Shown in pieces: positions 2,170-56,811 of a DNA stretch of 64,000 nucleotides. The stretch spans positions 31,480-95,479 of the forward strand of contig CAZHXI010000001.1 of NCBI GenBank assembly GCA_964536515.1, in the 5' to 3' direction. Within the stretch, counting starts at the first letter, position 1. The number at the start of each line of letters is the position of its first letter. A model generated the notes under the pieces. It was not told the DNA's origin and made no database searches. It saw only the letters and a program-made list of their open reading frames with translations. Origin of the DNA: an uncultured Gammaproteobacteria bacterium. Lineage in GTDB: Bacteria; Patescibacteriota; Patescibacteriia; CAYZDG01. The translations under genes were made by a program, and so were the position numbers.

Positions 2170-2200
2170 GGACAGTTCGTGGTATAATTTTTACCACTGT
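2170..2200 (+). promoter_or_regulatory. Extended -10 promoter (GACAGTTCGTGGTATAATTTTT), near-leaderless start of the TSP3/giant-protein operon
   Basis: TGgTATAAT at 2180-2189, ATG at 2201 only 11 nt downstream; near-identical motif at 17880-17905. Confidence 0.6.
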
Positions 2201-2755
2201 ATGCCCGGCTCGGCTCCGAATGCGTTCGTGCGGCGCTTTACCCAACCCGGGGTAGTGCTAGTCGCCGTCGCCCTCACCGGGGCCATGGGCCTGGTGGGTG
2301 GCTTTCGGCAGATCCGTTCGCAGATTCTAGATCCGTTCGCAATTCAATCTCCGACATCGAATGGGGCGGCTCCTGCAGCTGCGGTAGACACCGACGGCGA
2401 TGGCCTGAATGACGAGCTGGAGCTGCAGGCTTACGGCACCAGCCCCTACGTCGCAGACACCGACTCCGACGGCGTCTCTGATGGCAACGAGGTTGCGGCC
2501 GGCACCAGCCCAACCTGCGCCGCGGGCACTAGCTGCGACCCCCTGACGGTAACCGGGGGGTCATCCGCTGCGGCTACGACAACCCCCCAGGCGGGTTCAC
2601 CCACGGCAACGGCTCCGGCAGACGCAACCCCCGAGCAGCTGCGCCAGCTGCTGGTGCAGGCTGGCCTAGATAGCGCGCAGGTGAACAGCTTAACCGACGA
2701 GGAGCTAGCCGCTGCCTGGCAGGCGGCGGTGCAGCAGGCGGGCGGCGCCCAGTAG
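2201..2755 (+). CDS. Secreted/membrane-anchored Ca-binding protein with thrombospondin type-3-like Asp-rich repeats
   Basis: N-terminal hydrophobic segment (VVLVAVALTGAMGLVGG), then DTDGDGLNDELE…DTDSDGVSDGNE repeats and a Thr/Ala-rich tail. Start chosen at ATG 2201 right after the promoter; the track ORF begins at 2105. Confidence 0.55.
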   Translation: MPGSAPNAFVRRFTQPGVVLVAVALTGAMGLVGGFRQIRSQILDPFAIQSPTSNGAAPAAAVDTDGDGLNDELELQAYGTSPYVADTDSDGVSDGNEVAAGTSPTCAAGTSCDPLTVTGGSSAAATTTPQAGSPTATAPADATPEQLRQLLVQAGLDSAQVNSLTDEELAAAWQAAVQQAGGAQ

Positions 2756-2756
2756 T

Positions 2757-5700
2757 ATGGAGCGGCGACGATTGAGCGGCTTGATCCTGGGGACGCTGGT
2801 AGCAGCTGCACTGCTCGGCACAACCCTCATAGCTACGGTCAGCGTAGCCAGGCTGCGAGAGCGGGCGTTCGCCGCCGTTGGTTTCGGTGGAACTGGAGCA
2901 ATTCTGAAGACGATCACGCAGGGTTCCGGAGCCGCAATTGCCACGCCAGGATTCCCCGTCGTTGCAGACCCGGGTGTACGTACGCAGAACTTCTTAAGCT
3001 CGCTGGGCGATGCGATTGGCTCGGCGCTTGAGAGCAGCGGCAAGCTGCTGGTGAAGAATACGCTGTCGCGCTTCTTGGGTGAGCTGGCGCGCGGCACGGC
3101 GGAGTGGATTGCTACCGGCAGCCCGGGCCAGATGCCGCTGTTCGAGACGCAGGGTGGGTACGAGTTCATGGCGGCGACGCGTGACGCGGCTACCGCAGAG
3201 TTCCTAGATAGCCTGGGCAGCGCCTACGGCGTAGACGTGTGTAACCCCGAGCTCGGCGCCAAGCTGGTCATCCACTACAGCAGCCTGCCGTCTAGCCGTC
3301 TGGATACCCCCCGCTGCTCCCTGAAGCAAATTCAGGAGAACTGGGCTGAGCTGCTGCCGAATAACCAGGCCTTCCTGCAGCGGTTCAGCGCCGCACTGGA
3401 GCCAGACCAGAACGACCTGGGCATTGCGCTGACCCTGGAGAAGAAGCTGGTGGTAGAGCGCGAGACCAAGGCGAACGCCGCCATTCTGGAGCGGCTAGAG
3501 TCGCAGGGCCTCAAGCCCCTGAAGGACCTCGCCGGTAATATTGTGACCCCGGCGGCGGCGGTGAACGAGCAGATACGTCAGACCCTAGGCTTGAGCGCGC
3601 AGAAGGAGCTGTCGTTCATCGGCGACCCGGTGGCGGATGCCATTGGCATATTCACCAACACCCTGGGCAACAGGCTTCGAGAGAAGTGGCTGAAGCAGGG
3701 CTTCGTGAACATTGCCGACGTATTCAATCGCACCGGCAGCAGCGGCGGCCTGTTCGGCGGAGCCGGGCGCTACAGCGTGGCCGAGCCCCGGTTCGCTGCG
3801 CTGGCCGGTTTGGAGCTGGGAACCTCGGGATCAATCGACGTCGTCGGCGAGCTGTCTGCGTGCTCGGACCCCGCAGACCCGGGGTTCGGCAACCAGTGCG
3901 TGCTCGACCCCTCCTTCGCGCAGGCGGTGCAGCAGCAGCTGACGGTACGCGAGGCAATGGAGCGCGGCTTGCTACGGGGTGAGTGGGCGTTCGGCTACCT
4001 GCAGGACGGCAGCGAGCCTCGCTACGGCACCGGCTACCCGTACTCGGCAATGGTCGTCATGCGCACCAAGCGCATCGTTCCGGTCGGCTGGGAGCTGGCG
4101 GCGCAGGCAGCCAAGGCATTCGGGCAGGGCGTTACCTTGGACCACGTGCTGCACTGCTACGAAGATCCTGCGGCCGCCGGCGATGGATCGCGTCCGGTGG
4201 ACTGCCAGATTAACGGCATTAACCCGTTCTACCACCTGGTAGACCCCAACTGGCTGCTCAAGGTTCCGGCCACGTACTGCGTGCGGCGCGGCGCCAGCGC
4301 CGAGCTGCTAACCGAGGAGTACATCTGCAACCAGGACACGAACGGCGATAGCTTCGTGGACTGCGTGAACCTAGATTCGAACATCAACGGCATTGCCGCT
4401 CCGGTCGATGGGGATCCGAGCTCCAAGGATGAGTACCTCAGGGTGATCCAACGGGCCGAGTACTGCGCCGACGAGCAGAGCTGCATCGCCGAGAACGCCG
4501 ATGGTACCTGCCGCGCCTACGGCTACTGCTTCGAGGAGAAGCAGACCTTCAGCCTGGGGGACAATGCCTGCCCGTCGCAGTTCGCCTCGTGCGTGGGCGT
4601 AACCACGCCCAGCGGGCAGCAGACCGCCTACATCCAGGACAGCGTGCAGACCTGCCCCACCGGAGCCGCTGGCTGCCAGTGGTACAGCCGTCGCAAGAGC
4701 GGCGCCAACTGGAGCGTCGCCCCCACCGACCGCATCTACCTCAACTCCGAGGCGGCAACCTGCAGCCCCGACGACGCCGGCTGCCGCAAGCTGCTGCGCT
4801 TCGGCCAGGGCACCAACCTGGTACCCAACGGCGGCTTCGAACAGTACGACCGCCACCTGCCCAGCGATCCGAATGGCACAGATAACTTCTTCATCAACGG
4901 CGGCACGGCACGTGGACGGGCCTACACCAACGCGGCCGATGTGTACGAGGGGCAGGCATCGTTCCGCCTGACGCGGTCCGGTAGCATCAGCGTGCTGGCC
5001 GAAACGGGCAGCGAGGTAGCGGGCCGAACCTTTACCGCCTCGGTTGCCAGCAAGAACTGCACCGCCGGTTCGCTGTCGCTGCTGGACGGCGACGGGGGAG
5101 CCATTGGTGCTCCGGTCAACCTGCAGATTAGCGGGCCCGACACAGACAACGGCCAGTGGCACACCGCTACTATTACCGGCACCACGCAGGCGCCGGGCAC
5201 CAGCCTTACGGTGCAGGTTACCGGCCTCAATGCCTCGGTGGATTCCGACTGCCTGCTGGACTCGCTCGCCCTGACCGAGGGTTCGGCGAGGGCTACGCTG
5301 GCCTACGGCGCCGGACGTTCGGTGCACATTAGCAGCCGAGCCACGCAGTGCAGCCAGGACGACGTGGGCTGCCAGGCCTTCGTGCCGACGAGCGGCGACC
5401 CCACCGTGTTCGGCCGTATTACCGCCAACGATTACTGCCCGGCGCAGTGCGTGGGCTACCAGAACTACAGCCCCCTCATCAACACCTTCGAGGAGCGCGA
5501 GGGTGCGTCCGCCCCGGCGCCGTCTAACTTCATTCCCTCTACCGCACGCAGCTGCAGCGCCGTTGACGTGGGCTGCAGCGAGTTCACCAGCCTGGCAGAG
5601 GTGCCGGAAGGCGGCGAGCGGGTAGCCTACTTCAGCCAGGTGCAGCAGTGCGTGCCCGAGGCGACGCCGAGCGTGGGTACCTACTACACCTGGGAGGGCA

Positions 5701-8700
5701 GCGATACCGCCGGCTACCAGCTGCGCGTCTGGCAGCTGCTGCGTACCAATATCTCGGGGCCCCTGGCGCCGTGCACCAACCTCAGCTTAGACCCATCCAT
5801 TCAGCCGCCGGTCTGCTTGGATACGGCAGAAAACCGGGCGACCTGCGACCTGAATGCCGGTAACCCCGACTGCCGCGAGGTATTCGACTCCAATGCCACC
5901 AGCCACGGCGTGCTGTGGAGCCGCGTGGTGCAGGCGACGAACGACTGCCAGCAGTACCGTCGCACCGGCACCGACTTCGTGTACAACGTTTCGCCCCGAC
6001 TGGCGCGGCGCTGCCCGGCTGCGGCCAACGGCTGCCGCCAGTACCGCGGCGCCACCGGCGGCAACACCCGTACCGTTCTTCTGGCGGACTTCGAGACGTC
6101 ATCCGCCGCTGGCTGGGGCGGCACGCGCGTGGCGCTGACAACCGAGGCTCTGCAGGTCGGCGGGCACTCGCTGCTCGCTCTGGGCGCCAGCGGCAGCGTT
6201 ACGTTGCGCCGCACCGAGCCGCTAGCCATGCGTCCGGGCCACCAGTACATGCTCACCGTGTGGGTGAAGGGCTCAGACCGAGACATTCCGGCCGGCAACG
6301 TAACCCTACGCGGGGGCCTGCGCCGCCTGCTGGGCGCCCTGGGTGCAACCCCGGCGTCTGCCCAGCCCGGGCCTGCCGAGAACCTGGTATTCAACGCCGG
6401 GCCTACGCCCATCGGCGGCGAGTGGCAGAGGCTACAGATCGGGCCGGTTACGCCCACCACGCAGGCGAGCACCATGACGTTCGATATCACCGTGGCTATC
6501 GGCGGCCTTCGCAGCGCCTACTTCGACAACATCCAGCTGAAGGAGGTAACCAGCGATACGTTCGTGGTGCAGAACTCGTGGGAGACGCCGCAGGCCTGCG
6601 ATAACCCACCCGGCCTACCCAACGGCACCGACTCTAACCCCCGCACCGAGCCCGGCGCCATGGTGGGCTGCAGCGCCTACCGCGTGGCTGGCCGCCAGGT
6701 AACGCTGAGGTCTTTCAATCGGCTGTGCGCCGAGCGCAACGTGGGCTGCCAGGCGTTCATGGATACGGCGAACTCTGCCTCGCCGTTCGCCCAGCGTTTC
6801 AACTCAACCTGCAGCCTGGGCGCCCCCGTAGCCACGCCCACCGTCTGTAGCTCGGACGGGTACCAGCGCTGCGTGGTGGGAGCCGGCGAGGCGAGCTGCC
6901 GCTACACCCAGACCTCTGACTACGACCCCAGCTCTGCCGCGGAGCCGCTGGTAGCCGACGAAGACCAGGTGCCGGTGCTCGGCGACCGGGTTACCTACCT
7001 GGTAGACGACCCTGCGGCGTACTGCAGCGCCGAGGTAGCCGGCTGCACCCAGCTGGGCTTGCCCCGCATCAACAAGCAGGCGTGGTCTGGCAGCGGCGCA
7101 GCCCCGGCCAACGGCATCGTCAGCTGGCAGGACGTGTACAAGGTGGCGAACCCAGACCAGTTCAGCCGCAGCCTGTGCAGCGTCGGCCAGCTGTGGTGCG
7201 CGGCGCACCGCGTCTCGGGCGGCGGCACGCTTACCTTCCGCGACCCGCAGGGCAGCCTGGCGGGGGAGAGCCGTACCTGCGAGTACCGCACGGGCGTGCA
7301 GATTGGCAGCCAGCTGGTTACGGGCTGGTTCCGTACCGGCACCGACGACGGCTGCCGCGCCACGTCTAACTACAGCCTGCCGCTCAACGGCGGCCCGGGC
7401 TACGACCGCTTCGTGGGCATCTGCCCGGCGCAGTACAGCGGCTGCACCAACTACCGTAACCCGCAGCCCAGCGCCACCGGCGGCGAGCGCGACAACTACT
7501 TCCTGCGCAGCAGCGTAGATAGCAGCTCGTGCAACGGCCTGGTAGATGTGGCCGGCGGCTGCATGCTGTTCCGCGACCCAGCCCAGCCGGCGCTGTACAG
7601 CTCACAGTACAGCTACCCGCCCTACCGGCTGCCGGGCCAGGCGCCGGTAGCAACCTCGACGCTAGATAGCAACGTGGTCCTAAAGGTGCGGCGCGACCGC
7701 AGCTGCAGCCAGTGGTACAGCTGCGGCAGCAGCGTGGCCGTGCCCGGCAGCCCCACGGGGCAGCGGGTGTGCACGTCGCTCACCAGCTGCACGCGGCTGA
7801 ACCCCGCCACCAACCAGTGCGACAACCCCGGCGGCGGATCGTTCCCCGTCGGCAGCGCCGGCTTCCCCAACGAGTTCACCTTCGCCAGCCCGGATGACAG
7901 CACGCGGTGGCGTAACCTCTCCGGCTACACCGTACCCGGCATCCAGTTCACCGGCGGCCCGGGCCTGGTGAGCCGCGGCTTCACCCCCTACAGCAACATG
8001 GAGCAGATTGGGCTCTCCGCTACGGTCTCGAACGGCGGGTTCGACGACGCGGCAGACAGCCTAGCCTCCACCGACGGCGTGGGCTGGCATAGCTGCGACT
8101 CCGGCGCCCCGGCGGTACCGGCAGCGCAGGCTTGCAGCTACGTGGTTTCAGCCAACAGGGTTCGCGAGGGACGCGCGGCGCTGCGCTTCAGCTCTACGGT
8201 CGGCGCCGTAACCACCCTGCGGCACGGCGTCGTGGCCGTGGCTCCGAACTCTACGTACGCCGTCAGCGTGCAGCTGAACACCGTAGACCTGCTCGCCGGC
8301 GACGTGGCGCTCGAGGTGCTGGATGGCGGCGGCACGGTACAGCTGCGTCTGCAGCAGGGCTCGGGCCAGGGCTGGCAGACGCTGCTGGGGCAGTTCACCG
8401 CTACCGGCAGCGTTACCCTACGCCTGGTCGCCTCGGCTGATGCCAGCGGCAGCGCCTACGTAGACGACGTGAAGATCGAGCCGGTGCTGCAGGTGAACGG
8501 CGAGCCGCGCTTCGTGGGCCAGCAGTGCCGCGTCTACCCGCGCGGCGACGCACCGTCGTGCCGTTACACCCAGGCAGACGGCGAGTACCGGGGCATCACG
8601 GGCTACTGCCTGCAGCCCGACCCCCGCGACCCCAGCCGCTGCATCCAGTGGTGGCCGGTGGACGTGGTAGCCGGCCAGTCGTTCGACGTCTTCGGCGAGA

Positions 8701-10415
8701 CCATTAGCCTGAGCGGCCGTACGCCCCTGCGCTACTGCACCGAGGCTGCGGGAAACGCCTACGACGACAACCGCGATGGCACGAAAGAGTACTGGCGCGA
8801 TGCGGGGGTAGACGCGAATATTGATGGCGGCGGCACCGGCGGGGAGATAAGGGCTGCGTGCAACCCAGACCCCCTGGCGGCGTCGCCCTCTAGTACAGAT
8901 GATGGCTGCACGCTGGCTGAGATGAGCTCCGGGTGGGCGGTGGAGGAGCTTTCGGGTATGCACCTCTGGAACGTTCACTGGAGCCAGGTCGCCCGCATTG
9001 TGGCAGACGGCGACTACAACGCCTGCAATAAGCACTACTCCGTAATGCCAGAGCTACGTGAGTACACGTTCGAGATGCACGAGCCAACTAGGTCCGTTAC
9101 GCGTTTCGGCTTCTGGACAGACTGGCAGAACGACAGCGAGGGTGAGACCTGGGCTTTCTTCGGCGTCGACCGCGGCAGCGGACTCATCAACTACTTCATC
9201 GGCTACGTCAACGATACGGCGGGCAGCGGCGAGGACTGCACCGTGGACTTCAAGATCGTCACCAAGGAGCAGTGCTCGGTCGTCGCCGAGGTTCGGGCAG
9301 ACGATACGCACACGGCGTGGTTCGACCGTTTCAACGGCGGCACCTACTCCGACGCTAGCTTGGTCCCCGCCAACGATGCCGCTCCCTACGGCGCCCTGCC
9401 GGCTAACGCCGCTGCAGACCTGATGGGTGCCACCTGCGATCCCGATATCCTGGCAGCTTCGGACTCGCTGAGTATCGATGAGGGCTGCGCGTTGCCCATC
9501 GGCAAGTTCGCCCTGCGGGCCAACGGCTCGCAGGCCGAGCGCGGCGGCACGCCGCTGGCCTGTCCCGTGGGCGGGTGCGCCGTGCCGCAGTGCACCCTCG
9601 ACCGAGCCAACAGCTGCGGCACCGCTGGCCAGACTACCGCCTGCTTCGATGCACTGGCTACGCCGGGAATCGGCTTCTGCTCCGGCAACCAGGTGCCCAG
9701 CGCAGCGAACGAGGGAACCAGGGTCGAGGGCGCCGTGCGCCTATCGCAGATGTTCGCCCGCAGCTACTACACCTGGACCCTAGACCCCGCCACCCACCGC
9801 TACCGCATCAACGACTGCCTTAACGACGATACGATTCAGGTAGCCATTGCCGCATCCCCCACCGGGGTAGACTCCGGCAGCGGTTGCTGGGACAGGCGCA
9901 AGCTGCTATCCACGCCAGATCCTGCCCCCACCACGCTCCGCCCGCGGGTACCCGAGATTAGCATCAACGGCAATTCCAGCGACACGCCCGAGGTGGCAGC
10001 CAGCGTGGGCGATACTGTGGAGCTGCGCTTCAGCTCGCTGCTGAACGCCGACCGCCTGCCGCTGCGCTTCATCCTGGTTGACTGGGGCGACGGCGAGCGG
10101 ACCGTTACCTCGCGGCTGAGCATCAACCACCAGCCGTCCGTGGCTAGCGGCCACCTGTTCACGCACACCTACTCTACCCGGCCGACCACGACCTGTGGGT
10201 CCGACTTCTGCGCCACCATTCGGGTGCAGATCGAGGACAACTGGGGCTTCTGCAACGGCGCACTCCCTGCGACGAGCTACAATATCAACAATGGCAACAT
10301 GAGCCTCAACCAGAGTGGCGCCGGCTGCTTCATTGGGAACGCCACCGATAGCCTCCGCTGGACCAGGGCAACCACTACCCTCCGCTTCTCCACCGCGGTA
10401 GAGGAAGACGTCTAG
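2757..10415 (+). CDS. Giant (2552 aa) Cys-rich cell-surface protein with CBM-like beta-sandwich modules and a C-terminal PKD-like domain
   Basis: N-terminal TM/signal (LILGTLVAAALLGTTLIATVSVA). More than 10 repeats of C-x(8-15)-[DN]-x-x-G-C-[QRST]-x-[FYL], e.g. DDAGCRKLL, DDVGCQAFVP, VDVGCSEFTS, RNVGCQAFMD. Three NGGFE/NGGFD-type carbohydrate-binding-like modules. VDWGDGE PKD-like motif near the C-terminus. Confidence 0.7.
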   Translation: MERRRLSGLILGTLVAAALLGTTLIATVSVARLRERAFAAVGFGGTGAILKTITQGSGAAIATPGFPVVADPGVRTQNFLSSLGDAIGSALESSGKLLVKNTLSRFLGELARGTAEWIATGSPGQMPLFETQGGYEFMAATRDAATAEFLDSLGSAYGVDVCNPELGAKLVIHYSSLPSSRLDTPRCSLKQIQENWAELLPNNQAFLQRFSAALEPDQNDLGIALTLEKKLVVERETKANAAILERLESQGLKPLKDLAGNIVTPAAAVNEQIRQTLGLSAQKELSFIGDPVADAIGIFTNTLGNRLREKWLKQGFVNIADVFNRTGSSGGLFGGAGRYSVAEPRFAALAGLELGTSGSIDVVGELSACSDPADPGFGNQCVLDPSFAQAVQQQLTVREAMERGLLRGEWAFGYLQDGSEPRYGTGYPYSAMVVMRTKRIVPVGWELAAQAAKAFGQGVTLDHVLHCYEDPAAAGDGSRPVDCQINGINPFYHLVDPNWLLKVPATYCVRRGASAELLTEEYICNQDTNGDSFVDCVNLDSNINGIAAPVDGDPSSKDEYLRVIQRAEYCADEQSCIAENADGTCRAYGYCFEEKQTFSLGDNACPSQFASCVGVTTPSGQQTAYIQDSVQTCPTGAAGCQWYSRRKSGANWSVAPTDRIYLNSEAATCSPDDAGCRKLLRFGQGTNLVPNGGFEQYDRHLPSDPNGTDNFFINGGTARGRAYTNAADVYEGQASFRLTRSGSISVLAETGSEVAGRTFTASVASKNCTAGSLSLLDGDGGAIGAPVNLQISGPDTDNGQWHTATITGTTQAPGTSLTVQVTGLNASVDSDCLLDSLALTEGSARATLAYGAGRSVHISSRATQCSQDDVGCQAFVPTSGDPTVFGRITANDYCPAQCVGYQNYSPLINTFEEREGASAPAPSNFIPSTARSCSAVDVGCSEFTSLAEVPEGGERVAYFSQVQQCVPEATPSVGTYYTWEGSDTAGYQLRVWQLLRTNISGPLAPCTNLSLDPSIQPPVCLDTAENRATCDLNAGNPDCREVFDSNATSHGVLWSRVVQATNDCQQYRRTGTDFVYNVSPRLARRCPAAANGCRQYRGATGGNTRTVLLADFETSSAAGWGGTRVALTTEALQVGGHSLLALGASGSVTLRRTEPLAMRPGHQYMLTVWVKGSDRDIPAGNVTLRGGLRRLLGALGATPASAQPGPAENLVFNAGPTPIGGEWQRLQIGPVTPTTQASTMTFDITVAIGGLRSAYFDNIQLKEVTSDTFVVQNSWETPQACDNPPGLPNGTDSNPRTEPGAMVGCSAYRVAGRQVTLRSFNRLCAERNVGCQAFMDTANSASPFAQRFNSTCSLGAPVATPTVCSSDGYQRCVVGAGEASCRYTQTSDYDPSSAAEPLVADEDQVPVLGDRVTYLVDDPAAYCSAEVAGCTQLGLPRINKQAWSGSGAAPANGIVSWQDVYKVANPDQFSRSLCSVGQLWCAAHRVSGGGTLTFRDPQGSLAGESRTCEYRTGVQIGSQLVTGWFRTGTDDGCRATSNYSLPLNGGPGYDRFVGICPAQYSGCTNYRNPQPSATGGERDNYFLRSSVDSSSCNGLVDVAGGCMLFRDPAQPALYSSQYSYPPYRLPGQAPVATSTLDSNVVLKVRRDRSCSQWYSCGSSVAVPGSPTGQRVCTSLTSCTRLNPATNQCDNPGGGSFPVGSAGFPNEFTFASPDDSTRWRNLSGYTVPGIQFTGGPGLVSRGFTPYSNMEQIGLSATVSNGGFDDAADSLASTDGVGWHSCDSGAPAVPAAQACSYVVSANRVREGRAALRFSSTVGAVTTLRHGVVAVAPNSTYAVSVQLNTVDLLAGDVALEVLDGGGTVQLRLQQGSGQGWQTLLGQFTATGSVTLRLVASADASGSAYVDDVKIEPVLQVNGEPRFVGQQCRVYPRGDAPSCRYTQADGEYRGITGYCLQPDPRDPSRCIQWWPVDVVAGQSFDVFGETISLSGRTPLRYCTEAAGNAYDDNRDGTKEYWRDAGVDANIDGGGTGGEIRAACNPDPLAASPSSTDDGCTLAEMSSGWAVEELSGMHLWNVHWSQVARIVADGDYNACNKHYSVMPELREYTFEMHEPTRSVTRFGFWTDWQNDSEGETWAFFGVDRGSGLINYFIGYVNDTAGSGEDCTVDFKIVTKEQCSVVAEVRADDTHTAWFDRFNGGTYSDASLVPANDAAPYGALPANAAADLMGATCDPDILAASDSLSIDEGCALPIGKFALRANGSQAERGGTPLACPVGGCAVPQCTLDRANSCGTAGQTTACFDALATPGIGFCSGNQVPSAANEGTRVEGAVRLSQMFARSYYTWTLDPATHRYRINDCLNDDTIQVAIAASPTGVDSGSGCWDRRKLLSTPDPAPTTLRPRVPEISINGNSSDTPEVAASVGDTVELRFSSLLNADRLPLRFILVDWGDGERTVTSRLSINHQPSVASGHLFTHTYSTRPTTTCGSDFCATIRVQIEDNWGFCNGALPATSYNINNGNMSLNQSGAGCFIGNATDSLRWTRATTTLRFSTAVEEDV

Positions 10416-10418
10416 GAT

Positions 10419-13400
10419 ATGCTTCGTCTGCCATTGAATTTCAGCTCACCTCGCTTCGCCCGAGGCGTCGCGGTTGCGATGCTGGCCCTGGTCGCTATCG
10501 TAGCTGTGCCGGTGGCGTTGCCGGGCGGGGGAGTGAGCGATTCGGCGCCGGTGCGGTCGGCGATCGGCGTAGCTACGGTGCACGCGGTTACCGATACTGA
10601 TATTCAGATGCAGGCCGAAGCCAGGGAGGCAGCGGCGAACAAGACCGATAGTGACTCGTGGTTCACCCGGGTCATCAAGGAGCTGATGTACGCCATTATC
10701 CAGTTCTTCGGCTACATGACCGGGCTGCTGTTCAAGGTGCTAGAGATGATTGCCCAGTACAACGGGTTCACCACCGAGCCGATCGTGGTGAAGGGCTGGA
10801 CCATAGTCCGGGACGTCTGCAACATGTTCTTCGTCTTCGCCATGCTGCTCATTGCCTTCGGCACCATACTGCGCATCCAGGCCTACCACTACCGCAGCCT
10901 GCTGTTCAAGGTCGTGCTGATGGCGGTGCTCATGAACCTTTCTAAGTCTATCGTCGGCGTGCTCATAGACCTTTCGCAGATCGTAATGCTTTCGTTCGTG
11001 AGCGGGTTCAAGCACATGGTGGCGGGCAGCCTGGCCCAGGCCTTTGGCGTGGATAAGATACTAAGGTTGGTACCAACTGACTCCGGCACTAACGCTGTTA
11101 CCGCTGGGCAGGTGAACGATGCTCTGGGCGCAACCGGCGGCGACGGCGTGGTTGCCAGCGCGGGTACGCTGCTGGCGTCGTTCATTCTGGCTGCGCTCAT
11201 CATGGCTCTCATCTTCATTACCGTTCTAGCCATTACGGTGCAGCTCATAGTACGTGTGATAAAGCTATGGATTCTCACCATCATGGCGCCCATCGCCTTC
11301 GCCGGAACCCTGTTCAAGGGCCTGGGCTCAATGGCCGGCAAGTGGTGGGACGAGCTGACCAAGGAGCTGGTGGCCGGCCCCACGCTGATGTTCTTCCTCT
11401 GGCTGGTGCTGGCTATTAGCTCGGCTAACAGCGGCGAGGTGTTCGGCGCCGGCAGCCATGCGGCCGGCTCGTTCAACCCGCTGAACCTGGAGGCTGCCAG
11501 CGCCGGGAACCTAGTGAACCTGTTCGTGGTAGTGGGCTTGCTGTGGGCCGGCTTGGGAGCAGCCAAGGCGGGCGGTACCGCCGCCGCAGGCGCGGTAGGC
11601 TTCGGCCTGGGCAAGCTATCGAGCATCAGCCGCGGCTCTGCTCGCCTGGCGGGGAAGGGGGCAGCGGGCGTGGGCCGCTTCGGCCAGCGCTGGGCTGCGC
11701 AGGGCCTGTCTAAGAGCGGTATCCAGGCGCGCTACGAGATGGCCAAGGAAGGCATTCGAGAGTCTACCGCTGGCAAAGCGGTGCGCTTCTTTGGCAAGGA
11801 GGCTACCGAGCAGCGTTGGGCTGCCCGTAAGGCGATACGTCGGGAGCGCATTCTGACGCACATGGATACCGCGGCGAAGTCCGCAGACCTCGCGGGCCAG
11901 CCGATTGGGTGGATTCAGTCTGCCCGCCGTAAGCGTGAGCAAAAGTGGCGCGTCGAGTCTAACGTGGCTACCGCCAAGTACATGAAGGAGCTAGACGAGC
12001 AGGGGATCAACGACAATGCCAGCATTAGGGCGGCGCTGGCTTCCAATATGAAGGACGGCAAGGTGCAGAACGTAGATAAGCAGGCGGCGCTGCTGCGCCA
12101 GCTGGCGAGCAAGGGCAAGGTTCTGGATGCTAATCGCGACATTATCGAGAACACGGCGGGTATGTCGGATGGCTCCCGTGCCGCGCTGCTCGCTGCCTTC
12201 AAGGACCACGACACCAGCGCCATTAAGAGCGACGGCAGCATCCGTTCCGACGCCGAGGTAATGGAGGAGATGGAGTCGGCCATGAAGGGCGACGCCGATC
12301 GCGGCGCCAAGAACAAGAGGGTACGCGGCATTGCTGCCAAGGTCCGTGTGGACGAGAGGGGCCAGGTTGCCAACTCGACAGCCATCGCGACCCTCCGCAA
12401 CCTGGATGAGGACTACATTGAGCCGCTCGATAAGAAGCTGAAGGACGATATTAAGGGGGCTATCCTGCTGACGATCCACAACGCCAACCAGAGTGGCGAC
12501 ACCCAGCTGCGGGATGAAATGGAGAAGAAGTACAATCAGCTGTTCGCCCAGGGAACCGACAAGCAGGGCAACGCCCTCCCCAAGCTTGAGCTAGACAAGG
12601 ATACCGGACAGGTGAAGGACGACGCCATGCGTGCCGTGCAGCAGAAGGCTGCACGCAAGCAGGAGCGTGACCAGATCAAGGAGGTCAGCATGAAGCGTGA
12701 TAGCCTGGTACCCCTAGATGAGGGCGAGAAGGCGCTGCAGAAGCTGGTAGCCGCCATTGATGGCGCTCCAAAGAAAATTGAAGAGCTAAGGACTAAACTT
12801 GCGGAGCTATCAACCATCGACACGTCAACGAAGGCGGGACGTGGTTGGCATAAGCAGGCTACCATCGACGTAGCTCGCATACAGAAGGAGCTCGTCGACG
12901 GCGCTGAAAAACAAACAAAGGATGAGAATGGAAATCGAAAACCTGAGTTTGTCTACCGTGGCAACGACGGCTCGGTGATCGATCCTGGCGTCCTAGTCAA
13001 TCGAATGCTTGGTGGTAACCTTGAGTCTAGGCTCGATGCTGTCCGTGAGGATGTAGCTTGGAGCAGGGCTCAGCCCGATGATTCTAAGCGTCTCGCGTCT
13101 GATCAATTGCAGGTAATCTCTGCTCGATTCAACCGCATTCATAAGGTGGCTCCCCCGAAGGGTCCAGCATCGGCAGGTAGCCCGTCAGGTCGAGCGACTG
13201 ATACAAGGTACCTCGCCGGAGAGTTCGTCCAGCCACGGCAGGCGGTGAGTAGCATCGCCGATCCTTTGGTCAGTAAGGCACAGGGGGCGGTGAGGCAGGC
13301 ATTCCAGCAGATCGATCAGGGCCAGCGCGTAGCGAAGCTGGAGCCGGTGCTTAAGGAGGTGCAGGGTGCGATAAAGCAGATGCTGACTATTGATAAGCTC

Positions 13401-13535
13401 GACGAGGTTCAGAAGGGTGCGCTCACCGATATAGCAAAGGAGGCTGAAGATCTGAGCGGCAAGCTCGCTACCGCATCCGAGGCGGATGTATCAGCGATTG
13501 TCACCAAGATCAGCAAGCTGAAGAACCTAGCCTAG
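10419..13535 (+). CDS. VirB6/TrbL-like polytopic membrane protein with a ~600 aa charged coiled-coil-like C-terminal extension
   Basis: Signal/TM, then 6 or more hydrophobic helices (FFVFAMLLIAFGTIL, LIMALIFITVLAITVQLIV, etc.), then a long K/E/D/A-rich hydrophilic tail. Immediately follows the giant protein (stop, 3 nt, ATG). Confidence 0.55.
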   Translation: MLRLPLNFSSPRFARGVAVAMLALVAIVAVPVALPGGGVSDSAPVRSAIGVATVHAVTDTDIQMQAEAREAAANKTDSDSWFTRVIKELMYAIIQFFGYMTGLLFKVLEMIAQYNGFTTEPIVVKGWTIVRDVCNMFFVFAMLLIAFGTILRIQAYHYRSLLFKVVLMAVLMNLSKSIVGVLIDLSQIVMLSFVSGFKHMVAGSLAQAFGVDKILRLVPTDSGTNAVTAGQVNDALGATGGDGVVASAGTLLASFILAALIMALIFITVLAITVQLIVRVIKLWILTIMAPIAFAGTLFKGLGSMAGKWWDELTKELVAGPTLMFFLWLVLAISSANSGEVFGAGSHAAGSFNPLNLEAASAGNLVNLFVVVGLLWAGLGAAKAGGTAAAGAVGFGLGKLSSISRGSARLAGKGAAGVGRFGQRWAAQGLSKSGIQARYEMAKEGIRESTAGKAVRFFGKEATEQRWAARKAIRRERILTHMDTAAKSADLAGQPIGWIQSARRKREQKWRVESNVATAKYMKELDEQGINDNASIRAALASNMKDGKVQNVDKQAALLRQLASKGKVLDANRDIIENTAGMSDGSRAALLAAFKDHDTSAIKSDGSIRSDAEVMEEMESAMKGDADRGAKNKRVRGIAAKVRVDERGQVANSTAIATLRNLDEDYIEPLDKKLKDDIKGAILLTIHNANQSGDTQLRDEMEKKYNQLFAQGTDKQGNALPKLELDKDTGQVKDDAMRAVQQKAARKQERDQIKEVSMKRDSLVPLDEGEKALQKLVAAIDGAPKKIEELRTKLAELSTIDTSTKAGRGWHKQATIDVARIQKELVDGAEKQTKDENGNRKPEFVYRGNDGSVIDPGVLVNRMLGGNLESRLDAVREDVAWSRAQPDDSKRLASDQLQVISARFNRIHKVAPPKGPASAGSPSGRATDTRYLAGEFVQPRQAVSSIADPLVSKAQGAVRQAFQQIDQGQRVAKLEPVLKEVQGAIKQMLTIDKLDEVQKGALTDIAKEAEDLSGKLATASEADVSAIVTKISKLKNLA

Positions 13536-13536
13536 T

Positions 13537-14340
13537 ATGTCCGTAGACCGCGCCACCGTAGATGCTGCCCGAGCTGCCGCCGCCAGCGCCATTGCCGCGG
13601 CAGGGGTAGACGAGTCGCAGCGTGCCGCTGCGGCCGCGGCTTGCGATACGGTGCTGTGGGGCATTACCCCGTACGCCGAGCTGGCCAGCTACCTGCAGGA
13701 GGCAGCCAAGCTGCCGCCGCCCGTAGCCGAGGCTCTGGCTAGGCGGCTGGATGTCTCCGCTAAGCCAGCCTGGGAGCAGGTTTGGGCGGGCCTAGACCAG
13801 CAGCAGCGCCACTGGAACAAGCAGGACCTCTCCGAAGACTACGCTAGCTTCGCCGCAGACCTAGACGCCGAGGTGGCCGAGGCGGCGCCGGAGCTGGCGC
13901 AGCAGCCTTCGGTTACGCCGCTGCTAGCCGAGCTGCTGGACGGCGGCGACAGGTACGACGCCACGGCGCTGCTAGCCTGGCTGGCGCAGCAGGGTAGGCT
14001 CGTGGGCGTGTGCATGCAGGACCGTGACATTCGTGAGGACTTCACCGAGTGGGTTACGGGCGCTCTGGGCGGGGGACAGGGCAAGCCCGCCATCGTCATT
14101 CCGGGGCCAGACCAGTGGAGCGCTCCGCTGACGGCGCTGCTGCTGCAGTACCTGCTGGAGGTGCGGCTGGGCTGGAACGCCGAGCAGTCTGCCATGGCCG
14201 CCATGTACCTGGCGCAGCAGCTGGCCAAGGCCAGCGGCGAGCACCGCTACGCTACCGCCGTGTACGGCGACGAGGCTACGGGCGAATTCCGCTGGCGGCC
14301 GGTGCGGCTGGAGAACGGCCAGGTCGTGTTCGCGGATTGA
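13537..14340 (+). CDS. Hypothetical acidic Ala-rich protein (secretion-locus associated)
   Basis: 267 aa ORF starting 1 nt after the previous stop. No recognisable motifs. Confidence 0.45.
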   Translation: MSVDRATVDAARAAAASAIAAAGVDESQRAAAAAACDTVLWGITPYAELASYLQEAAKLPPPVAEALARRLDVSAKPAWEQVWAGLDQQQRHWNKQDLSEDYASFAADLDAEVAEAAPELAQQPSVTPLLAELLDGGDRYDATALLAWLAQQGRLVGVCMQDRDIREDFTEWVTGALGGGQGKPAIVIPGPDQWSAPLTALLLQYLLEVRLGWNAEQSAMAAMYLAQQLAKASGEHRYATAVYGDEATGEFRWRPVRLENGQVVFAD

Positions 14341-14355
14341 TGCCTACGTAATGCG

Positions 14356-14383
14356 GTAGAGACGCATTGCAATGCGTCTCTAC
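14356..14383. repeat. Palindromic repeat family copy 1 (GTAGAGACG-CATTGCAATG-CGTCTCTAC), likely a bidirectional terminator
   Basis: Perfect 28-nt palindrome between convergent genes 13537..14340(+) and efp(-). Confidence 0.7.
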
Positions 14384-14415: not shown

Positions 14416-14979
14416 CTAGGCTCGTTCGACGTACGAATCCGTCTCGGTATTCACGATAATCTTGTCGCCCGCGTTCACGAACATGGGCACGCGCAGCTCG
14501 GCGCCGCCCGCCAGGGTGGCTACCTTGGTGGCGTTTCCGGCGGTGTCGCCCTTGGCGCTGCCCGGCGTCTCGGCTACCTCCACCGCTACCTTGGTGGGCA
14601 GGGTAGCCGCCACGGGCTGGCCCTTGAAGTACAGCACGTCTACCTCTAGCCCCTCGGATAGGTAGCATCCCTTGCCGCCGAGCTGGGCGTCGCTGAAGCT
14701 GAACTGGTCGAAGTCCTCGGTGCCCATGAAGGCGTAGCTGTCGCCGTCGCGGTACAGGTAGCTAGCCTTGCGGCGGACGATGTCCGCCTCGGGGTAGGTG
14801 TCGGAGGGCTGCACGGTCCGCTCCAGCGTGGCTCCCGTTAGCAGGTTGCGCATCTTGGTGCGCAGCGTGGCGCCGCCGCGGGCCACCTTGATGTGCTGGG
14901 TGAAGATGACGGTCCAGGGGGCGCCGTCTACCTCGATGACCGTTCCCAGCTTGAGCTGGTTCATCGTTAGCTGGGGCAT
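14416..14979 (-). CDS. efp: Elongation factor P
   Basis: MPQLTMNQLKLGTVIEVDG…KGDTAGNATKVATLAGGAELRVPMFVNAGDKIIVNTETDSYVERA, a strong EF-P signature. Start at internal ATG 14979; the track ORF extends to 15075. Confidence 0.9.
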   Translation of the reverse strand: MPQLTMNQLKLGTVIEVDGAPWTVIFTQHIKVARGGATLRTKMRNLLTGATLERTVQPSDTYPEADIVRRKASYLYRDGDSYAFMGTEDFDQFSFSDAQLGGKGCYLSEGLEVDVLYFKGQPVAATLPTKVAVEVAETPGSAKGDTAGNATKVATLAGGAELRVPMFVNAGDKIIVNTETDSYVERA

Positions 14980-15028
14980 ATGGTTGGGGTCAGGTAGATC
15001 CCTCGCTCCGCTCGGGATGCTCGGGCAG

Positions 15029-15277
15029 CTAGTGCTGCCCTCGCACGTACGGCAGCAGGGCCATGAAGCGGGCACGCTTTATGGCTTCGGCTACGCCGCG
15101 CTGGTGCCAGGCGCACACGCCGCTCTTGCGACGCGGCACTATCTTGCCGTAGGAGCTGGTGAAGCGCTGGAGGATGCCCGTCTCCTTGTAGTCGATGCCG
15201 CTGAGGTTGTTGGCGCAGAAGTAGCAGAAGCGGTCGCGGGCGAGGGGGGATGCTGGGGCGGGGGTACGTCGGTTCAT
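15029..15277 (-). CDS. rpsR: 30S ribosomal protein S18
   Basis: CYFCANNLSGIDYKETGILQRFTSSYGKIVPRRKSGVCAWHQRGVAEAIKRARFMALLPY, a canonical bS18. Confidence 0.85.
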   Translation of the reverse strand: MNRRTPAPASPLARDRFCYFCANNLSGIDYKETGILQRFTSSYGKIVPRRKSGVCAWHQRGVAEAIKRARFMALLPYVRGQH

Positions 15278-15295
15278 AGCTGTGATGGTGGACGG

Positions 15296-15733
15296 TTAGA
15301 AGGGAATCTCCTCGACCTTGATCTCGCCCTCGTCGGGCGGCAGGTCGTGGGTGGGAGCGGGGCTGGCAATTTCGGGGCGGGACTGGGTGCCGCCGCCAGC
15401 CGGGGCGCGGTCGAGCATAATCAGGCCCTCGGCGATGATCTCGGTGCGGAACTTCTTCACGCCCGTCTGGTCGTCCCAGGAGCGGGTCTTGATGCGGCCC
15501 TCCACGTAGACGCGCATGCCCTTGTGCATGTACTGCTGGCAGATTTCCGCCAGCCGGCCCCAGGCCACGACGCTGTGGAACTCCGTCTCCTCCTGCTTCA
15601 CGCCGGCCTGGTTGGTCCAGGTGCGGCTGGTGGCGACGCCGAGCGACGCGACCGACTGCCCGCTGGGGGTGGTGCGCACCTCCGGGTCGCGGGTTAGGTT
15701 GCCGATGATCATGGCGCGGTTGAGGTTGACCAT
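15296..15733 (-). CDS. ssb: Single-stranded DNA-binding protein
   Basis: MVNLNRAMIIGNLTRDPEVRTTPSGQSVASLGVATSRTWTNQAGVKQEETEFHSVVAWGRLAE OB-fold signature; acidic C-terminal tail ending DEGEIKVEEIPF. Confidence 0.85.
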   Translation of the reverse strand: MVNLNRAMIIGNLTRDPEVRTTPSGQSVASLGVATSRTWTNQAGVKQEETEFHSVVAWGRLAEICQQYMHKGMRVYVEGRIKTRSWDDQTGVKKFRTEIIAEGLIMLDRAPAGGGTQSRPEIASPAPTHDLPPDEGEIKVEEIPF

Positions 15734-15863
15734 ATGGGTAGTGAGTCGTTAGTAGTTGGTCGTAGGTTCGTTGGTCGGAAGTTAGAAGGTCGTCGGGTTC
15801 GATTGTCGTTCGTCGAATTTCCAACAATCGAATTTTCGACAAACGACCAGCGAGCTTTCGAAT

Positions 15864-16364
15864 TTATACGTTCTCGGTGGGGGCGGAGAGGATCTCGTCC
15901 AGCTTCTGGTCGAGGTCCTTCAGCTCTACCTTGGGCTTGGCCGGAGCAGCGGCGCGGGGGCGCCGGGTGGTGTGGCGGTCGGCGCCACGGTCCGCCTCGC
16001 GGTCGCGCATGCGGCTGGCCATACGATCCTTGGCCTTCTGCAGGCGTCCCTGCTCCTCGGCGGTAACGGCGTGCTTCTCCACGATTAGGTAGCGCAGCAC
16101 GTTCGGCACCAGCTTGAGGGTACCCTGCAGCGTGGGCAGGGTGTGGGGCACGGCGCGGAACTCGGCCACGGCGTAGGTGCCGTAGCGCTGGCCCTCCACG
16201 GGGTAGGCTAGGCGGGTGCGGCCGATGGTCGCCCCGTTGAGGATGGTTACGCCAGCCTTCTGCAGGGCTGCCTGCAGGGCGTCGGTAACGGTGTTAACCT
16301 CGGTGTCCTCGACGCCGGGGTGGATGATGTAGGTGCACTCGTAGTGCTTCTGGTCTTCGCGCAT
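15864..16364 (-). CDS. rpsF: 30S ribosomal protein S6 with an extended charged C-terminus
   Basis: MREDQKHYECTYIIHPGVEDTEVNTVTDALQAALQKAGVTILNGATIGRTRLAYPVEGQRYGTYAVAEF, a bS6 fold signature. Conserved rpsF-ssb-rpsR order. Confidence 0.85.
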   Translation of the reverse strand: MREDQKHYECTYIIHPGVEDTEVNTVTDALQAALQKAGVTILNGATIGRTRLAYPVEGQRYGTYAVAEFRAVPHTLPTLQGTLKLVPNVLRYLIVEKHAVTAEEQGRLQKAKDRMASRMRDREADRGADRHTTRRPRAAAPAKPKVELKDLDQKLDEILSAPTENV

Positions 16365-16533
16365 GCGATTCTATGGTTACCTCGCCCGTGGGGGAGAGGA
16401 TCTGTCTCCCCGGTAAAGCCCAGGGTAGGCAGATATGGATAACGTTTGTGGCTGGAAATTACACGGGAATCGCCTCTCCGTCAAGGACGGTTCATGGGGG
16501 CGTGGTCCCGTGGGGCAATGGCCATTTGCGTCG

Positions 16534-16564
16534 CGTAGAGACGGGTTTAAAACCCGTCTCTACG
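16534..16564. repeat. Palindromic repeat family copy 2 (GTAGAGACG-GGTTTAAAACC-CGTCTCTAC)
   Basis: 31-nt near-perfect palindrome in the divergent intergenic region between rpsF(-) and the methyltransferase(+). Confidence 0.7.
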
Positions 16565-16603
16565 ACGTTTGGTACATTCGGCAACGTTTGTTATGGTGCC
16601 CCC

Positions 16604-17803
16604 ATGAACCGATACGTATTCCTCCTGGGCCGGGAGGCTGCCCTGGGCGCAGCCGAGGTAATTGCTACCGGCCGCTTCTCATCTATCGATGCTGCTGCCA
16701 GCGGCGGCGAGGTTCTAGTTGCCTCTACAGATACTGCCCTGGAGAACCCCCAGGCCTTCTTGGACCGTATCGGCGGGACGGTGAAGCTAGCAGGGGTTGT
16801 TTCGGAGGTCGAGGGACAGCCGTCTCTGGAAGACCTGCTAGCCCTGCTACCCGGCGAGGGCAAGGTTCACTTCGGCATCAGCTGGTACGGCGGGCAGGTG
16901 CCGGACCTAGAGAAACTGGGGCGCCAGATGAAGGCGGCGCTGCAGGCGCAAGATCGCTCCGCCCGTTTCGTCAGCAGCCGCAGTAACCCGCTGTCCTCCG
17001 TCATCGTGCGGACGCAGAAGCTGCTGGGCGCGAGGGGATGTGAAATCATAGTGGCAATCCTTAACGGTGGTGACGTAGGGTCGAGGCGCGCCTCGACCCT
17101 ACTGGGCCGGACCATCGCTGCACAAAATTTTATTGAGTACGGCCGGCGTGATGCCGGACGCCCCAGCCGCAACATCAACCGCGGCATGCTGCCGCCCAAG
17201 GTGGCGCAGGTGCTGCTGAATTTGGCGCAGGTTAAGCCGGGCGACACGGTGCTGGATCCGTTCTGCGGCACGGGCACGGTGCTGCAGGAGGCGCTGGTAA
17301 TGGGTGCCGGCAAGGCTATCGGCCGTGACGTAGATGACGACGCGGTGGAGGAGGCCACCGAGAACCTTTCGTGGCTGCCACGCCGCGCCCAGGTAGCGGG
17401 TACGTGGGAGGTCTACCGCCACGACGCACGCCAGGCCGACCGTAAGCTGCAGGATGGATCCATCGATGCGGTGGTAACCGAGCCGCTGCTGGGGCCGCTG
17501 CGGCCGCCGCGCCAGCACGAGGCGGTGGTCAAGCTGGTGGGGGAGCTGCAGCAGCTGTACCGGGCGTCGTTCGTGGCTGCGGCGGCCGCCCTAAAGCCCG
17601 GCGGCCGGCTGGTGGCCGTGCTGCCCGTGATCGGCGAGGTTTCCTCTGCCGACCTGGGTGGGCTGCCCGGCCTGAGCTCCGTCAGCCTGCTGCCCCAGGA
17701 CCTAGCCGCAAGGTTCGGCATCGACGTTGGCCAGCGATTGGTGTACCGCCGCCCCGGCCAGGCCGTAGGCCGCGCGGTGGTGGTTTTTGAAAAAAACCTG
17801 TAG
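16604..17803 (+). CDS. SAM-dependent RNA methyltransferase (Trm11/RlmL-like N2-G/N6-A family)
   Basis: DPFCGTGTVLQEALVMGAG SAM-binding motif I and a downstream VVTEPLLGPL (D/N-PPY-like) region. Start at ATG 16604; the track ORF from 16373 runs through the palindromic repeat. Confidence 0.55.
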   Translation: MNRYVFLLGREAALGAAEVIATGRFSSIDAAASGGEVLVASTDTALENPQAFLDRIGGTVKLAGVVSEVEGQPSLEDLLALLPGEGKVHFGISWYGGQVPDLEKLGRQMKAALQAQDRSARFVSSRSNPLSSVIVRTQKLLGARGCEIIVAILNGGDVGSRRASTLLGRTIAAQNFIEYGRRDAGRPSRNINRGMLPPKVAQVLLNLAQVKPGDTVLDPFCGTGTVLQEALVMGAGKAIGRDVDDDAVEEATENLSWLPRRAQVAGTWEVYRHDARQADRKLQDGSIDAVVTEPLLGPLRPPRQHEAVVKLVGELQQLYRASFVAAAAALKPGGRLVAVLPVIGEVSSADLGGLPGLSSVSLLPQDLAARFGIDVGQRLVYRRPGQAVGRAVVVFEKNL

Positions 17804-17830
17804 AGACGAGGCGCGCCTCGTCTCTACAGG
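17797..17830. repeat. Palindromic repeat family copy 3 (CCTGTAGAGACGAGGCG|CGCCTCGTCTCTACAGG), overlaps the methyltransferase stop codon
   Basis: 34-nt perfect palindrome; the TAG stop at 17801-17803 lies inside the left arm. Confidence 0.7.
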
Positions 17831-17879
17831 TCCGCCGTTGGCGTACCCGCCGCGCGGCCGCTTGCCCCGTTCATAGAAC

Positions 17880-17909
17880 GGACGATTCGTGGTATAATTT
17901 TTTCGTTCT
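17880..17909 (+). promoter_or_regulatory. Extended -10 promoter (GACGATTCGTGGTATAATTTTTT), near-leaderless start of the second secretion-locus operon
   Basis: TGgTATAAT at 17890-17899; ATG at 17910 is 10 nt downstream. 19/22 identity with the motif at 2171-2192. Confidence 0.6.
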
Positions 17910-19004: not shown

Positions 19005-19009
19005 CGCAT

Positions 19010-19483
19010 ATGGCCCAGCTGCAGCACTTCGTCGTCCCCCAGTTCATAGATATCGAGAGCAAGATTCTGGGGCCCATTACCACCCGGCAGTTCCTGTGGG
19101 TGCTGGGCGCCGGGCTCATTTTCTTCATCGCCCTGCGCACGCTGCCGGTGCCGGCCTTCATTGCCGTAGCGGTGCTGGATGTAGCCGTGTTCGGCAGCTT
19201 CGCCTTCGTGAAGGTGAACGGCCAGCTCTTCCATAACTTCCTGGTCAGCGCCATTGCCTTCGGGCGGCGGCCGAGGCTGTACCTATGGACCGCCGGGGTA
19301 GAGGATGACGGAGTTTCCGTTGCCGCCGTCAGCCCGGCGGAGGCGGTGGGCCAGCGTCCGCTGATTCCCGCCGGCAGGCTGAACGAGCTGGCGCTGCTGG
19401 TAGACACCGGCGGCACCTACCAGGCCGTGACCGCATTCAAGGAAATACCGCCTATCCCCGAAGACCATGTCCCCCAAGCCTAA
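19010..19483 (+). CDS. Small two-TM membrane protein, PrgI/VirB3-like position upstream of VirB4
   Basis: 157 aa; hydrophobic hairpin FLWVLGAGLIFFIALRTLPVPAFIAVAVLDVAVFGSFAFV. Gene-order analogy to Gram-positive T4SS (PrgI then PrgJ). Confidence 0.45.
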   Translation: MAQLQHFVVPQFIDIESKILGPITTRQFLWVLGAGLIFFIALRTLPVPAFIAVAVLDVAVFGSFAFVKVNGQLFHNFLVSAIAFGRRPRLYLWTAGVEDDGVSVAAVSPAEAVGQRPLIPAGRLNELALLVDTGGTYQAVTAFKEIPPIPEDHVPQA

Positions 19484-22044: not shown

Positions 22045-22056
22045 TAGACTGCAGCT

Positions 22057-23084: not shown

Positions 23085-23120
23085 CGAGACGGCGCTCGGG
23101 CTTTACGCTACACTAATTCC

Positions 23121-56781: not shown

Positions 56782-56811
56782 CGTAGAGACGAGGCGCGCC
56801 TCGTCTCTACG
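56782..56811. repeat. Palindromic repeat family copy 5 (CGTAGAGACGAGGCG|CGCCTCGTCTCTACG)
   Basis: 30-nt perfect palindrome downstream of yqeY; acts as terminator and/or insulator before the giant adhesin promoter. Confidence 0.7.

Follow-up and report, generated by a model that had tools for sequence, protein, structure and literature searches.

Do two near-identical promoter-like sequences, placed at the two ends of a 15.7-kb segment, serve the two halves of one secretion-like gene cluster, and does their likeness call for a dedicated regulator? This question is raised by the stretch of DNA analysed here (64,000 nucleotides, hereafter the window; GC = 65%). The type IV secretion system (T4SS) gene cluster of Patescibacteria has already been described (PMC12102498), and the same study reported that one strain cannot grow epibiotically without PrgI/VirB3; the main text of this study never uses the word 'promoter'. 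A first-pass annotation of the window had proposed that the two sequences are copies of one element, through which one factor co-regulates both halves of the locus as near-leaderless mRNAs. Our comparisons were made at the level of sequence, and they lead us to consider that the two sequences, P1 (2160-2192) and P2 (17870-17902), are probably two copies of one strong extended -10 promoter of the housekeeping-sigma (sigma-70) type. Related loci are denoted below by L and a number.

Two matched promoter-like sequences

The 17-mer TTCGTGGTATAATTTTT occurs exactly at 2176-2192 and at 17886-17902, in both cases on the + strand, and these are its only two matches in the 64-kb window when both strands are searched with up to three mismatches. 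No match was obtained in 100 dinucleotide-preserving shuffles. When the upstream GGAC is included, P1 and P2 are identical at 21 of 23 positions (2170-2192 versus 17880-17902); the similarity reported earlier (about 19 of 22) was thus real but understated, and its coordinates were off by one. The complete regions read GGACAGTTCGTGGTATAATTTTTACCACTGTATG (P1, 2170-2203) and GGACGATTCGTGGTATAATTTTTTCGTTCTATG (P2, 17880-17912).

Each copy contains a perfect -10 hexamer TATAAT (2183-2188 in P1 and 17893-17898 in P2), with TG one base to its 5' side (2180-2181 and 17890-17891; TGGTATAAT), and the extended -10 TGgTATAAT that had been read in each copy is present as described. In the window, the extended -10 TGNTATAAT is found at P1 and P2 only, and plain TATAAT is found five times. 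The -35-like hexamers, which lie 17 nt 5' of the -10, are weak at both sites: TTGTTG (2160-2165, + strand; 3/6), read from the sequence, in P1, and TTCATA (17870-17875, + strand; 4/6), obtained with the promoter scan, in P2. P2 was the best match of the sigma-70 promoter scan of the window (10/12, with TG). In P1, the hexamer is followed by a T-rich discriminator (2189-2192). The gap between the hexamer and the ATG is 12 nt in P1 (ATG at 2201) and 11 nt in P2 (ATG at 17910), and the earlier value of 10-11 nt is corrected accordingly. P2 is bracketed by an inverted repeat, CATAGAACG/CGTTCTATG (17872-17912, + strand), the arms of which overlap the -35 hexamer and the start codon; the inverted repeat at P1 is GTGGTATAA/TTTTACCAC, unlike that of P2.

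Genes downstream of P1 and P2 and their start codons

Each of P1 and P2 lies upstream of an operon and points towards its first gene. Operon 1 (2201-14340, + strand), assigned from ORFs and Pfam, is composed of tightly abutting genes for a membrane protein with bacterial TSP3 repeats (2201-2755; Pfam), a giant protein of 2552 aa (2757-10415), a protein of 1038 aa (p1038; 10419-13535) and a protein of 267 aa (p267; 13537-14340). No Pfam family was obtained for the three large ORFs in 2757-14340. The operon ends at a terminator-like palindrome, GTAGAGACG...CGTCTCTAC (14356-14383, + strand). It is followed by efp, rpsR, ssb and rpsF on the - strand (14416-16364), named from their L085 and L089 orthologs, which have Pfam labels, and by a gene for a DNA/RNA methyltransferase on the + strand (16373-17803; Pfam). 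Operon 2 (17910-25365, + strand), assigned from Pfam and from the Pfam labels of orthologs, starts with the gene for a 364-aa protein (p364), followed by those for a PrgI/VirB3-like protein (19010-19483), a TraC-like protein of 224 aa, a VirB4-like ATPase (20131-22044) and four more proteins; the gene for a T4SS pilin plus VanY-like protein (24280-25365) is the last.

The gene map of the window is a crude GC3-based call, and its layout agrees with the public gene calls. On a public contig, the genes of operon 1 are called identically, with the same ATG (2201) as the start of the first gene, and the identical TSP3 protein is recorded on a 158-kb NCBI contig. Seven orthologs of the TSP3 protein align from M1, with MPGSAPNAFVRRFTQPGV kept. 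As for p364, the first two residues (M1-P2) are invariant in six orthologs, and the second TATAAT contains an in-frame TAA (17895-17897), which makes a start further upstream impossible. The alignments and the in-frame stop confirm the start codons at 2201 and 17910.

Note that the start codons of rpsF (- strand) and the methyltransferase gene (+ strand) lie back to back, 8 nt apart (16364-16373), so that the promoter of each must sit within the coding region of the other. The same back-to-back arrangement is kept in L085 (8589-8598).

Split of an ancestrally contiguous cluster

A search of species-representative genomes with the VirB4 protein gave 80 loci. The informatively labelled loci are nearly all from Patescibacteria/CPR (candidate phyla radiation) MAGs (Magasanikbacteria, Parcubacteria, Kerfeldbacteria and others), with 61-68% identity plus one close relative at 93%, and many other loci among the 80 carry a generic placeholder taxon label only. 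The VirB4, PrgI/VirB3, TraC-like and pilin-like genes of the window are in the order of the described Patescibacteria cluster as found in the 80 related CPR loci, whereas the cluster in the lineage of the window is interrupted by efp-rpsR-ssb-rpsF and the methyltransferase gene.

In 52 of 81 loci, the 10 kb upstream of VirB4 contain a p1038 homolog. The split was examined in the 46 loci that have homologs of both p1038 and p364. No homolog of efp, rpsR, ssb, rpsF or the methyltransferase gene lies between the two in 43 of these loci; the intervening block is found in only three (L002, L085 and L089), all of the window's own lineage. In L004, all genes of the cluster are contiguous on one strand. 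The p364 homolog of many distant relatives directly follows a gene whose product has the C-terminus ...YYFDEE..KF.W, and the C-terminus of p267 in the window (...YGDEATGEFRW...) matches that of the gene adjoining the p364 homologs elsewhere. Since the block is absent from 43 of 46 loci and the C-terminal motif of p267 matches, the two halves ancestrally formed one contiguous cluster. The earlier view of two halves of one secretion-like system, each with what looks like a real promoter directly before its first start codon, is supported. Because a housekeeping block now separates the halves in this lineage, the downstream half needs a promoter of its own, and P2 is, by this gene-order comparison, the predicted promoter that serves it after the split.

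The position of the two copies could also be explained by recombination, the direct repeats of 17-23 nt that flank the 15.7-kb segment being, for example, the att-like ends of an insertion. However, the segment contains core genes of the conserved CPR cluster together with essential housekeeping genes, the scanned proteins gave no integrase domain, each repeat has a full promoter anatomy and a constant spacing to a start codon, and P1 is kept in relatives whose P2 differs. We give practically no credence to this explanation, and the att-site or island reading was ruled out on the gene content between the repeats.

Conservation in related genomes

The orthologous upstream regions were gathered via homolog searches and contig look-ups. 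Compared as a 16-mer, the element is exact at eight of nine orthologous sites (six or seven high-GC genomes), and the ninth has one mismatch. Beyond these nine sites, no match with up to three mismatches was found in about 153 kb of high-GC clade DNA (the 64-kb window plus about 90 kb of close relatives). The motif search beyond the original pair thus gave the orthologous sites and no third copy in this DNA, the 64-kb window included.

For P1, the 16-mer is exact in L082, L092, L094 and L219 (GC 0.64-0.67; TSP3 protein identity 50-77%), all of which keep AATTGTTGGAG, GTTCGTGGTATAATTTT and AC(C/T)ACTGT-ATG without indels; the -35 region AATTGTTGGAG is invariant in five high-GC genomes, and AC(C/T)ACTGT is without indels in five. 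For P2, TTCATAGAACGG..GATTCGTGGTATAATTTTT..GTTCT-ATG is kept in L085 and L096 with the 17-mer exact. In L002 (GC 0.53), where the core has one mismatch, only TTCGTGGTATAATT and CGTTCTATG are kept, and the spacer is otherwise unalignable. The leader region of P2, GTTCTATG, is invariant in four genomes. Throughout the high-GC clade, the spacing from the core to the ATG is invariant while the distal intergenic DNA has diverged. The inverted repeat at P2 has 10-nt arms in L085 and 8-nt arms in L096, and its left arm is missing in L002. An AT-rich region of ~80 nt upstream of P1 is partly conserved.

In low-GC relatives (GC 0.42-0.47), whose TSP3 gene products are 46% and 39% identical to that of the window, P1 is kept as TTTGTGGTATAATTTT and TTTGTGATATAATTTT, or in fuller form as GTTTGTGGTATAATTTTAC (L086) and TTTGTGATATAATTTTTT (L220), with a -35-like hexamer at 17 nt (TTGTTT in L086 and TTGACG in L220) and a gap of 31-37 nt between the hexamer and the ATG. 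The P2 of low-GC relatives reads TTCATA-N15-TGTTATAAT and is 33 nt from the ATG; the -35 hexamer TTCATA is also present in the low-GC L089 and L098. By these alignments, the predicted promoter is old, and its very short predicted leader and the P1/P2 identity are specific to the high-GC clade.

In 70 distant CPR loci, a search of the DNA preceding the p364 homologs did not give the motif. Many of these loci have the p364 homolog right after the stop codon of the preceding gene, and some have other TATAAT promoters with leaders of ~30 nt. L054 and L058 have matches to TGGTATAATTT, which on inspection lie outside an orthologous context. A metagenome-wide search for exact TTCGTGGTATAATTTT gave at least 120 matches; those listed were all from unrelated organisms or due to chance, and none had the context of the CPR site.

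As for base composition, relatives with the same gene order differ in GC (0.65 in the window, 0.53 in L002 and 0.41-0.42 in L086 and L089), and VirB4 of L002 is 93% identical to that of the window despite the GC of 0.53. The GC spread among these close relatives indicates an apparently fast compositional shift within one CPR lineage. Two public gene calls differ from our assignment. At L086:10001-10066, the call uses an upstream TTG start, so that the promoter is inside the called TSP3 ORF, and at L219:3929, the TSP3 call uses an ATG 30 codons too far downstream.

General promoter signature and the longer shared block

Extended -10 (TGn) promoters are reportedly a class of sigma-70 promoters, with a '-16 region' TRTGnTATAAT in Gram-positive bacteria. 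P1 and P2 resemble this class in having a consensus TATAAT with TG at -15/-14, and the low-GC relatives have a perfect TGTG-n-TATAAT; the -35 is weak, as is typical where TGn compensates. The high-GC clade differs from it in having C at -17 (CGTG versus TRTG) and a conserved block lengthened by a 5' TTC and a 3' TTTT.

The likeness extends to the putative promoters of related CPR loci, at which GTGnTATAAT is enriched. We compared TATAAT sites in 79 such loci (L003-L081, ~1.4 Mb). The hexamer located 4-60 nt upstream of the ATG of an ORF of at least 100 aa (n = 222) was preceded by TGn in 21.6% and by GTGn in 12.6% of the cases, versus 6.4% and 1.9%, respectively, for the other TATAAT (n = 980), which corresponds to a 6.5-fold enrichment of GTGn. 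By these counts, GTGnTATAAT is the putative general strong-promoter signature of the clade. The reservation made in the first-pass annotation, that a motif found upstream of most genes is only a generic promoter, therefore applies to GTGnTATAAT and not to the further positions shared by P1 and P2, namely TTC at -19..-17, G at -13 and TTTT after the hexamer. This extension is absent from the other promoter-like sites of the window (TTATAAT of HU with a ~30-nt leader, TATAAT of rpsU followed by AAGGAGG, GGTATACT, GGTATAAC and the TATAGT sites). Note that the reading of P1 and P2 as a matched pair, and not the promoter call, depends on TTCGTGGTATAAT being rare upstream of unrelated genes.

The longer block might be a composite of promoter and operator, in which a dedicated regulator reads TTCGTGG...TTTT and switches both halves together. 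P1 and P2 agree at eight positions beyond GTGnTATAAT, none of which varies at either site in any of the high-GC genomes, and HU, rpsU and other promoters of the window do without this extension. Moreover, the P2 of the low-GC sister lineage (TTTTCTGTTATAATAAA) is unlike its P1, from which it follows that P2 of the high-GC clade converged on, or was converted to, the sequence of P1. On the other hand, every base shared by P1 and P2 falls inside the polymerase footprint, and no palindrome or direct repeat is common to the two sites; their inverted repeats differ and do not occur in all relatives. The element has only two copies in the window, with no regulon seen there or in the ~153 kb of clade DNA, and among the genes of the locus, Pfam pointed to no candidate regulator. 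We judge a dedicated regulator of this kind to be unlikely. A shared palindromic operator was considered separately and ruled out, as the inverted repeats of P1 and P2 differ. Of the proposed co-regulation by one factor, the shared element stands, and the factor need be no more than RNA polymerase with the housekeeping sigma.

The identity of P1 and P2 beyond the consensus nevertheless exceeds the needs of the polymerase as known, to our knowledge, from organisms outside the CPR, and this leaves room for an extra factor. A conceivable but rather doubtful scenario is that P2 was remodelled, or converted, into a copy of P1 after the split, and that a lineage-specific factor or an unusual sigma contact with TTCG and the T-run keeps the two halves in step.

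Predicted short leaders and leaderless-type expression

Both promoters are predicted, from spacing only, to give a leader of about 5 nt, with 4-8 nt as the plausible range. The predicted starts, A2196 and G17905, are the purines located 7-8 nt after the hexamer, the usual distance from the -10 to the start. In P1, the predicted start region and leader occupy 2193-2200 (+ strand), with the start at about 2195-2196 and the leader ACTGT; in P2, the predicted 5-nt leader GTTCT occupies 17905-17909 (+ strand). Neither leader contains a Shine-Dalgarno (SD) sequence, and none of GGAG, GAGG and AGGA occurs between the -10 and the ATG at P1 and P2. The near-leaderless 5'UTR of about 4 nt proposed before is hence retained as a very short, SD-free predicted leader, with its predicted length changed to about 5 nt. 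In the leaderless signature, the -10 box lies 6-7 nt before the start, in comparison with 12 and 11 nt at P1 and P2, and the mRNAs from P1 and P2 are predicted to be short-leadered and SD-less, not strictly leaderless.

Leaderless or very-short-leader mRNAs are reportedly found in Actinobacteria, and are likewise said to be known in Deinococcus. The features in common are the lack of an SD, the -10 box immediately upstream of the start codon and, for many genes of the window, TANNNT 6 nt before the ATG. The differences are that the gap of 11-12 nt at P1 and P2 gives a leader of ~5 nt, not 0, and that the host belongs to Patescibacteria/CPR. Exactly 6 nt separate an upstream TANNNT from the start codon in six of the 50 genes examined, versus 0.5 expected from all ATGs (binomial P ~1e-5); examples are the genes at 22057, 23121, 30004, 34197 and 37637 (minus strand). 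A 4-mer SD core was found at -20..-4 in 9 of 50 genes, versus 11.7% of random positions. Across the 79 CPR loci, gaps of 6-9 nt between TATAAT and the first ATG of ORFs of at least 100 aa form a peak (31/222 versus ~16 expected). These data suggest that leaderless mRNAs may be widespread in this part of the CPR. The view that the leaderless architecture is in itself a distinction of P1 and P2 is not upheld, since TANNNT-N6-ATG is common in this genome and P1 and P2 are less strictly leaderless than several of their neighbours. Our literature search returned no paper describing leaderless mRNAs in Patescibacteria or the candidate phyla radiation. The anti-SD motif was detected in just 48% of the 16S rRNAs of Parcubacteria (PMC9297842).

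Two promoters of the leaderless type are predicted inside operon 2. The first, TGATAGACT-N6-ATG(22057) (22042-22056, + strand), is conserved in orthologs as TATACT-N7-ATG (L085) and TAGACT-N6-ATG (L096). Note that in TGATAGACT the stop codon TGA of VirB4 doubles as the TGn of the extended -10. The second, TACACT-N6-ATG(23121), or GCTACACT-N6-ATG (23109-23120, + strand), is conserved in L085 and L096; GCTACA(C/A)T is present 6-11 nt before the ATG in L085, L096 and L098, and TTTACAAT is present 10 nt before it in L089.

If the motif were not a promoter, transcription would start far upstream, the leaders would be long, and the conserved sequence would act at the RNA level, for example through a hairpin at P2 (CAUAGAACG/CGUUCUAUG) masking the AUG. 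In a transcript that contained both, the inverted repeat at P2 would indeed let the start codon base-pair with the -35 region, and the ~80-nt AT-rich stretch upstream of P1 is partly conserved. However, the fold energies are unexceptional (z = -1.5 to -2.2 in the window and L085), no compensatory changes or covariation occur at the hairpin, whose left arm is absent in L002, and P1 is without an equivalent structure. Moreover, P2 is closely preceded by a palindrome that resembles a terminator. Furthermore, the presence at both sites of a consensus -10, TG and a -35 spaced by 17 nt would be an improbable coincidence if the sequence acted as RNA. In Rfam, only four tRNAs were obtained for the window, with nothing at the promoters. 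Altogether, action at the RNA level seems very improbable to us.

The element upstream of P2 is a perfect palindrome with 18-nt arms (17796-17831, + strand) that overlaps the stop codon of the methyltransferase gene. It is likely a terminator or a REP-like element, and is missing at this place in L085 and L002.

Proposed expression of the two operons

On the preferred reading, that of two copies of one housekeeping promoter, the polymerase would recognise the -35-like hexamer, a spacer of 17 nt with TTCGTGG (TG at -15/-14) at its 3' end, TATAAT and the T-rich discriminator, and transcription would start about 7-8 nt downstream of the hexamer. The resulting mRNAs would have their AUG about 5 nt from the 5' end without an SD, and would be translated via a 5'-end-dependent (leaderless-like) route, which is apparently used by many genes of this SD-poor genome. 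P1 would drive the genes for the TSP3 protein, the giant protein, p1038 and p267, and P2 those for p364, VirB3, the TraC-like protein, VirB4 and the pilin. Near-identical promoters would give both halves equal strength and an equal response to control at the level of the polymerase. Co-expression of the two halves by P1 and P2 is plausible, and would be accounted for most simply by two copies of one housekeeping promoter, not by a dedicated factor. A point against the proposed route of translation is the spacing of 11-12 nt at P1 and P2, as opposed to 6-7 nt in the true leaderless genes of the window; a 5-nt leader may behave differently. It is conceivable, though rather doubtful, that this high-GC Parcubacteria-like lineage expresses its genes mainly through initiation that depends on the 5' end and needs no SD.

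These assignments provide concrete promoters and start codons, as predicted, for a type IV secretion-like cluster on which Patescibacteria appear to depend, together with an example of a split operon that keeps matched expression signals. They also add evidence that short-leader, SD-free expression may be common in this uncultured group, and such well-defined, putatively strong native promoters could serve in genetic tools for CPR. The element is of an ordinary kind and makes for a solid annotation; the current understanding of promoters and translation initiation is left unchallenged.

Other features of the window

The terminator-like palindrome after operon 1 belongs to a family with constant arms (GTAGAGACG and CGTCTCTAC) and variable loops of 10-11 nt. 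Copies are located at 14356-14383, 16535-16563, 17075-17102, 17800-17827, 18495-18522 and 56783-56810 in the window, and at L085:10586 and L002:4094, 4737 and 6365 in relatives. Some are terminator-like, just after stop codons, and others are in frame within genes (the methyltransferase ORF contains two, and a third codes for VETRRASSL in the Pro-rich linker of p364). At the position in p364, L085 has a different loop and L002 is without a copy (9-aa gap). The arms include inverted CGTCTC sites, which we take to be type IIS-like sites.

In the region 54890-55144, for which no Rfam match at the gathering threshold was obtained, an AT-rich stretch of ~100 nt (TGTTATGATTGACTTATCATAGTAAATATGCTACTATAGAATTATAGTATATAC...) stands out in this 65% GC genome, and a GC-rich, possibly structured leader of ~150 nt lies between it and the gene at 55145.
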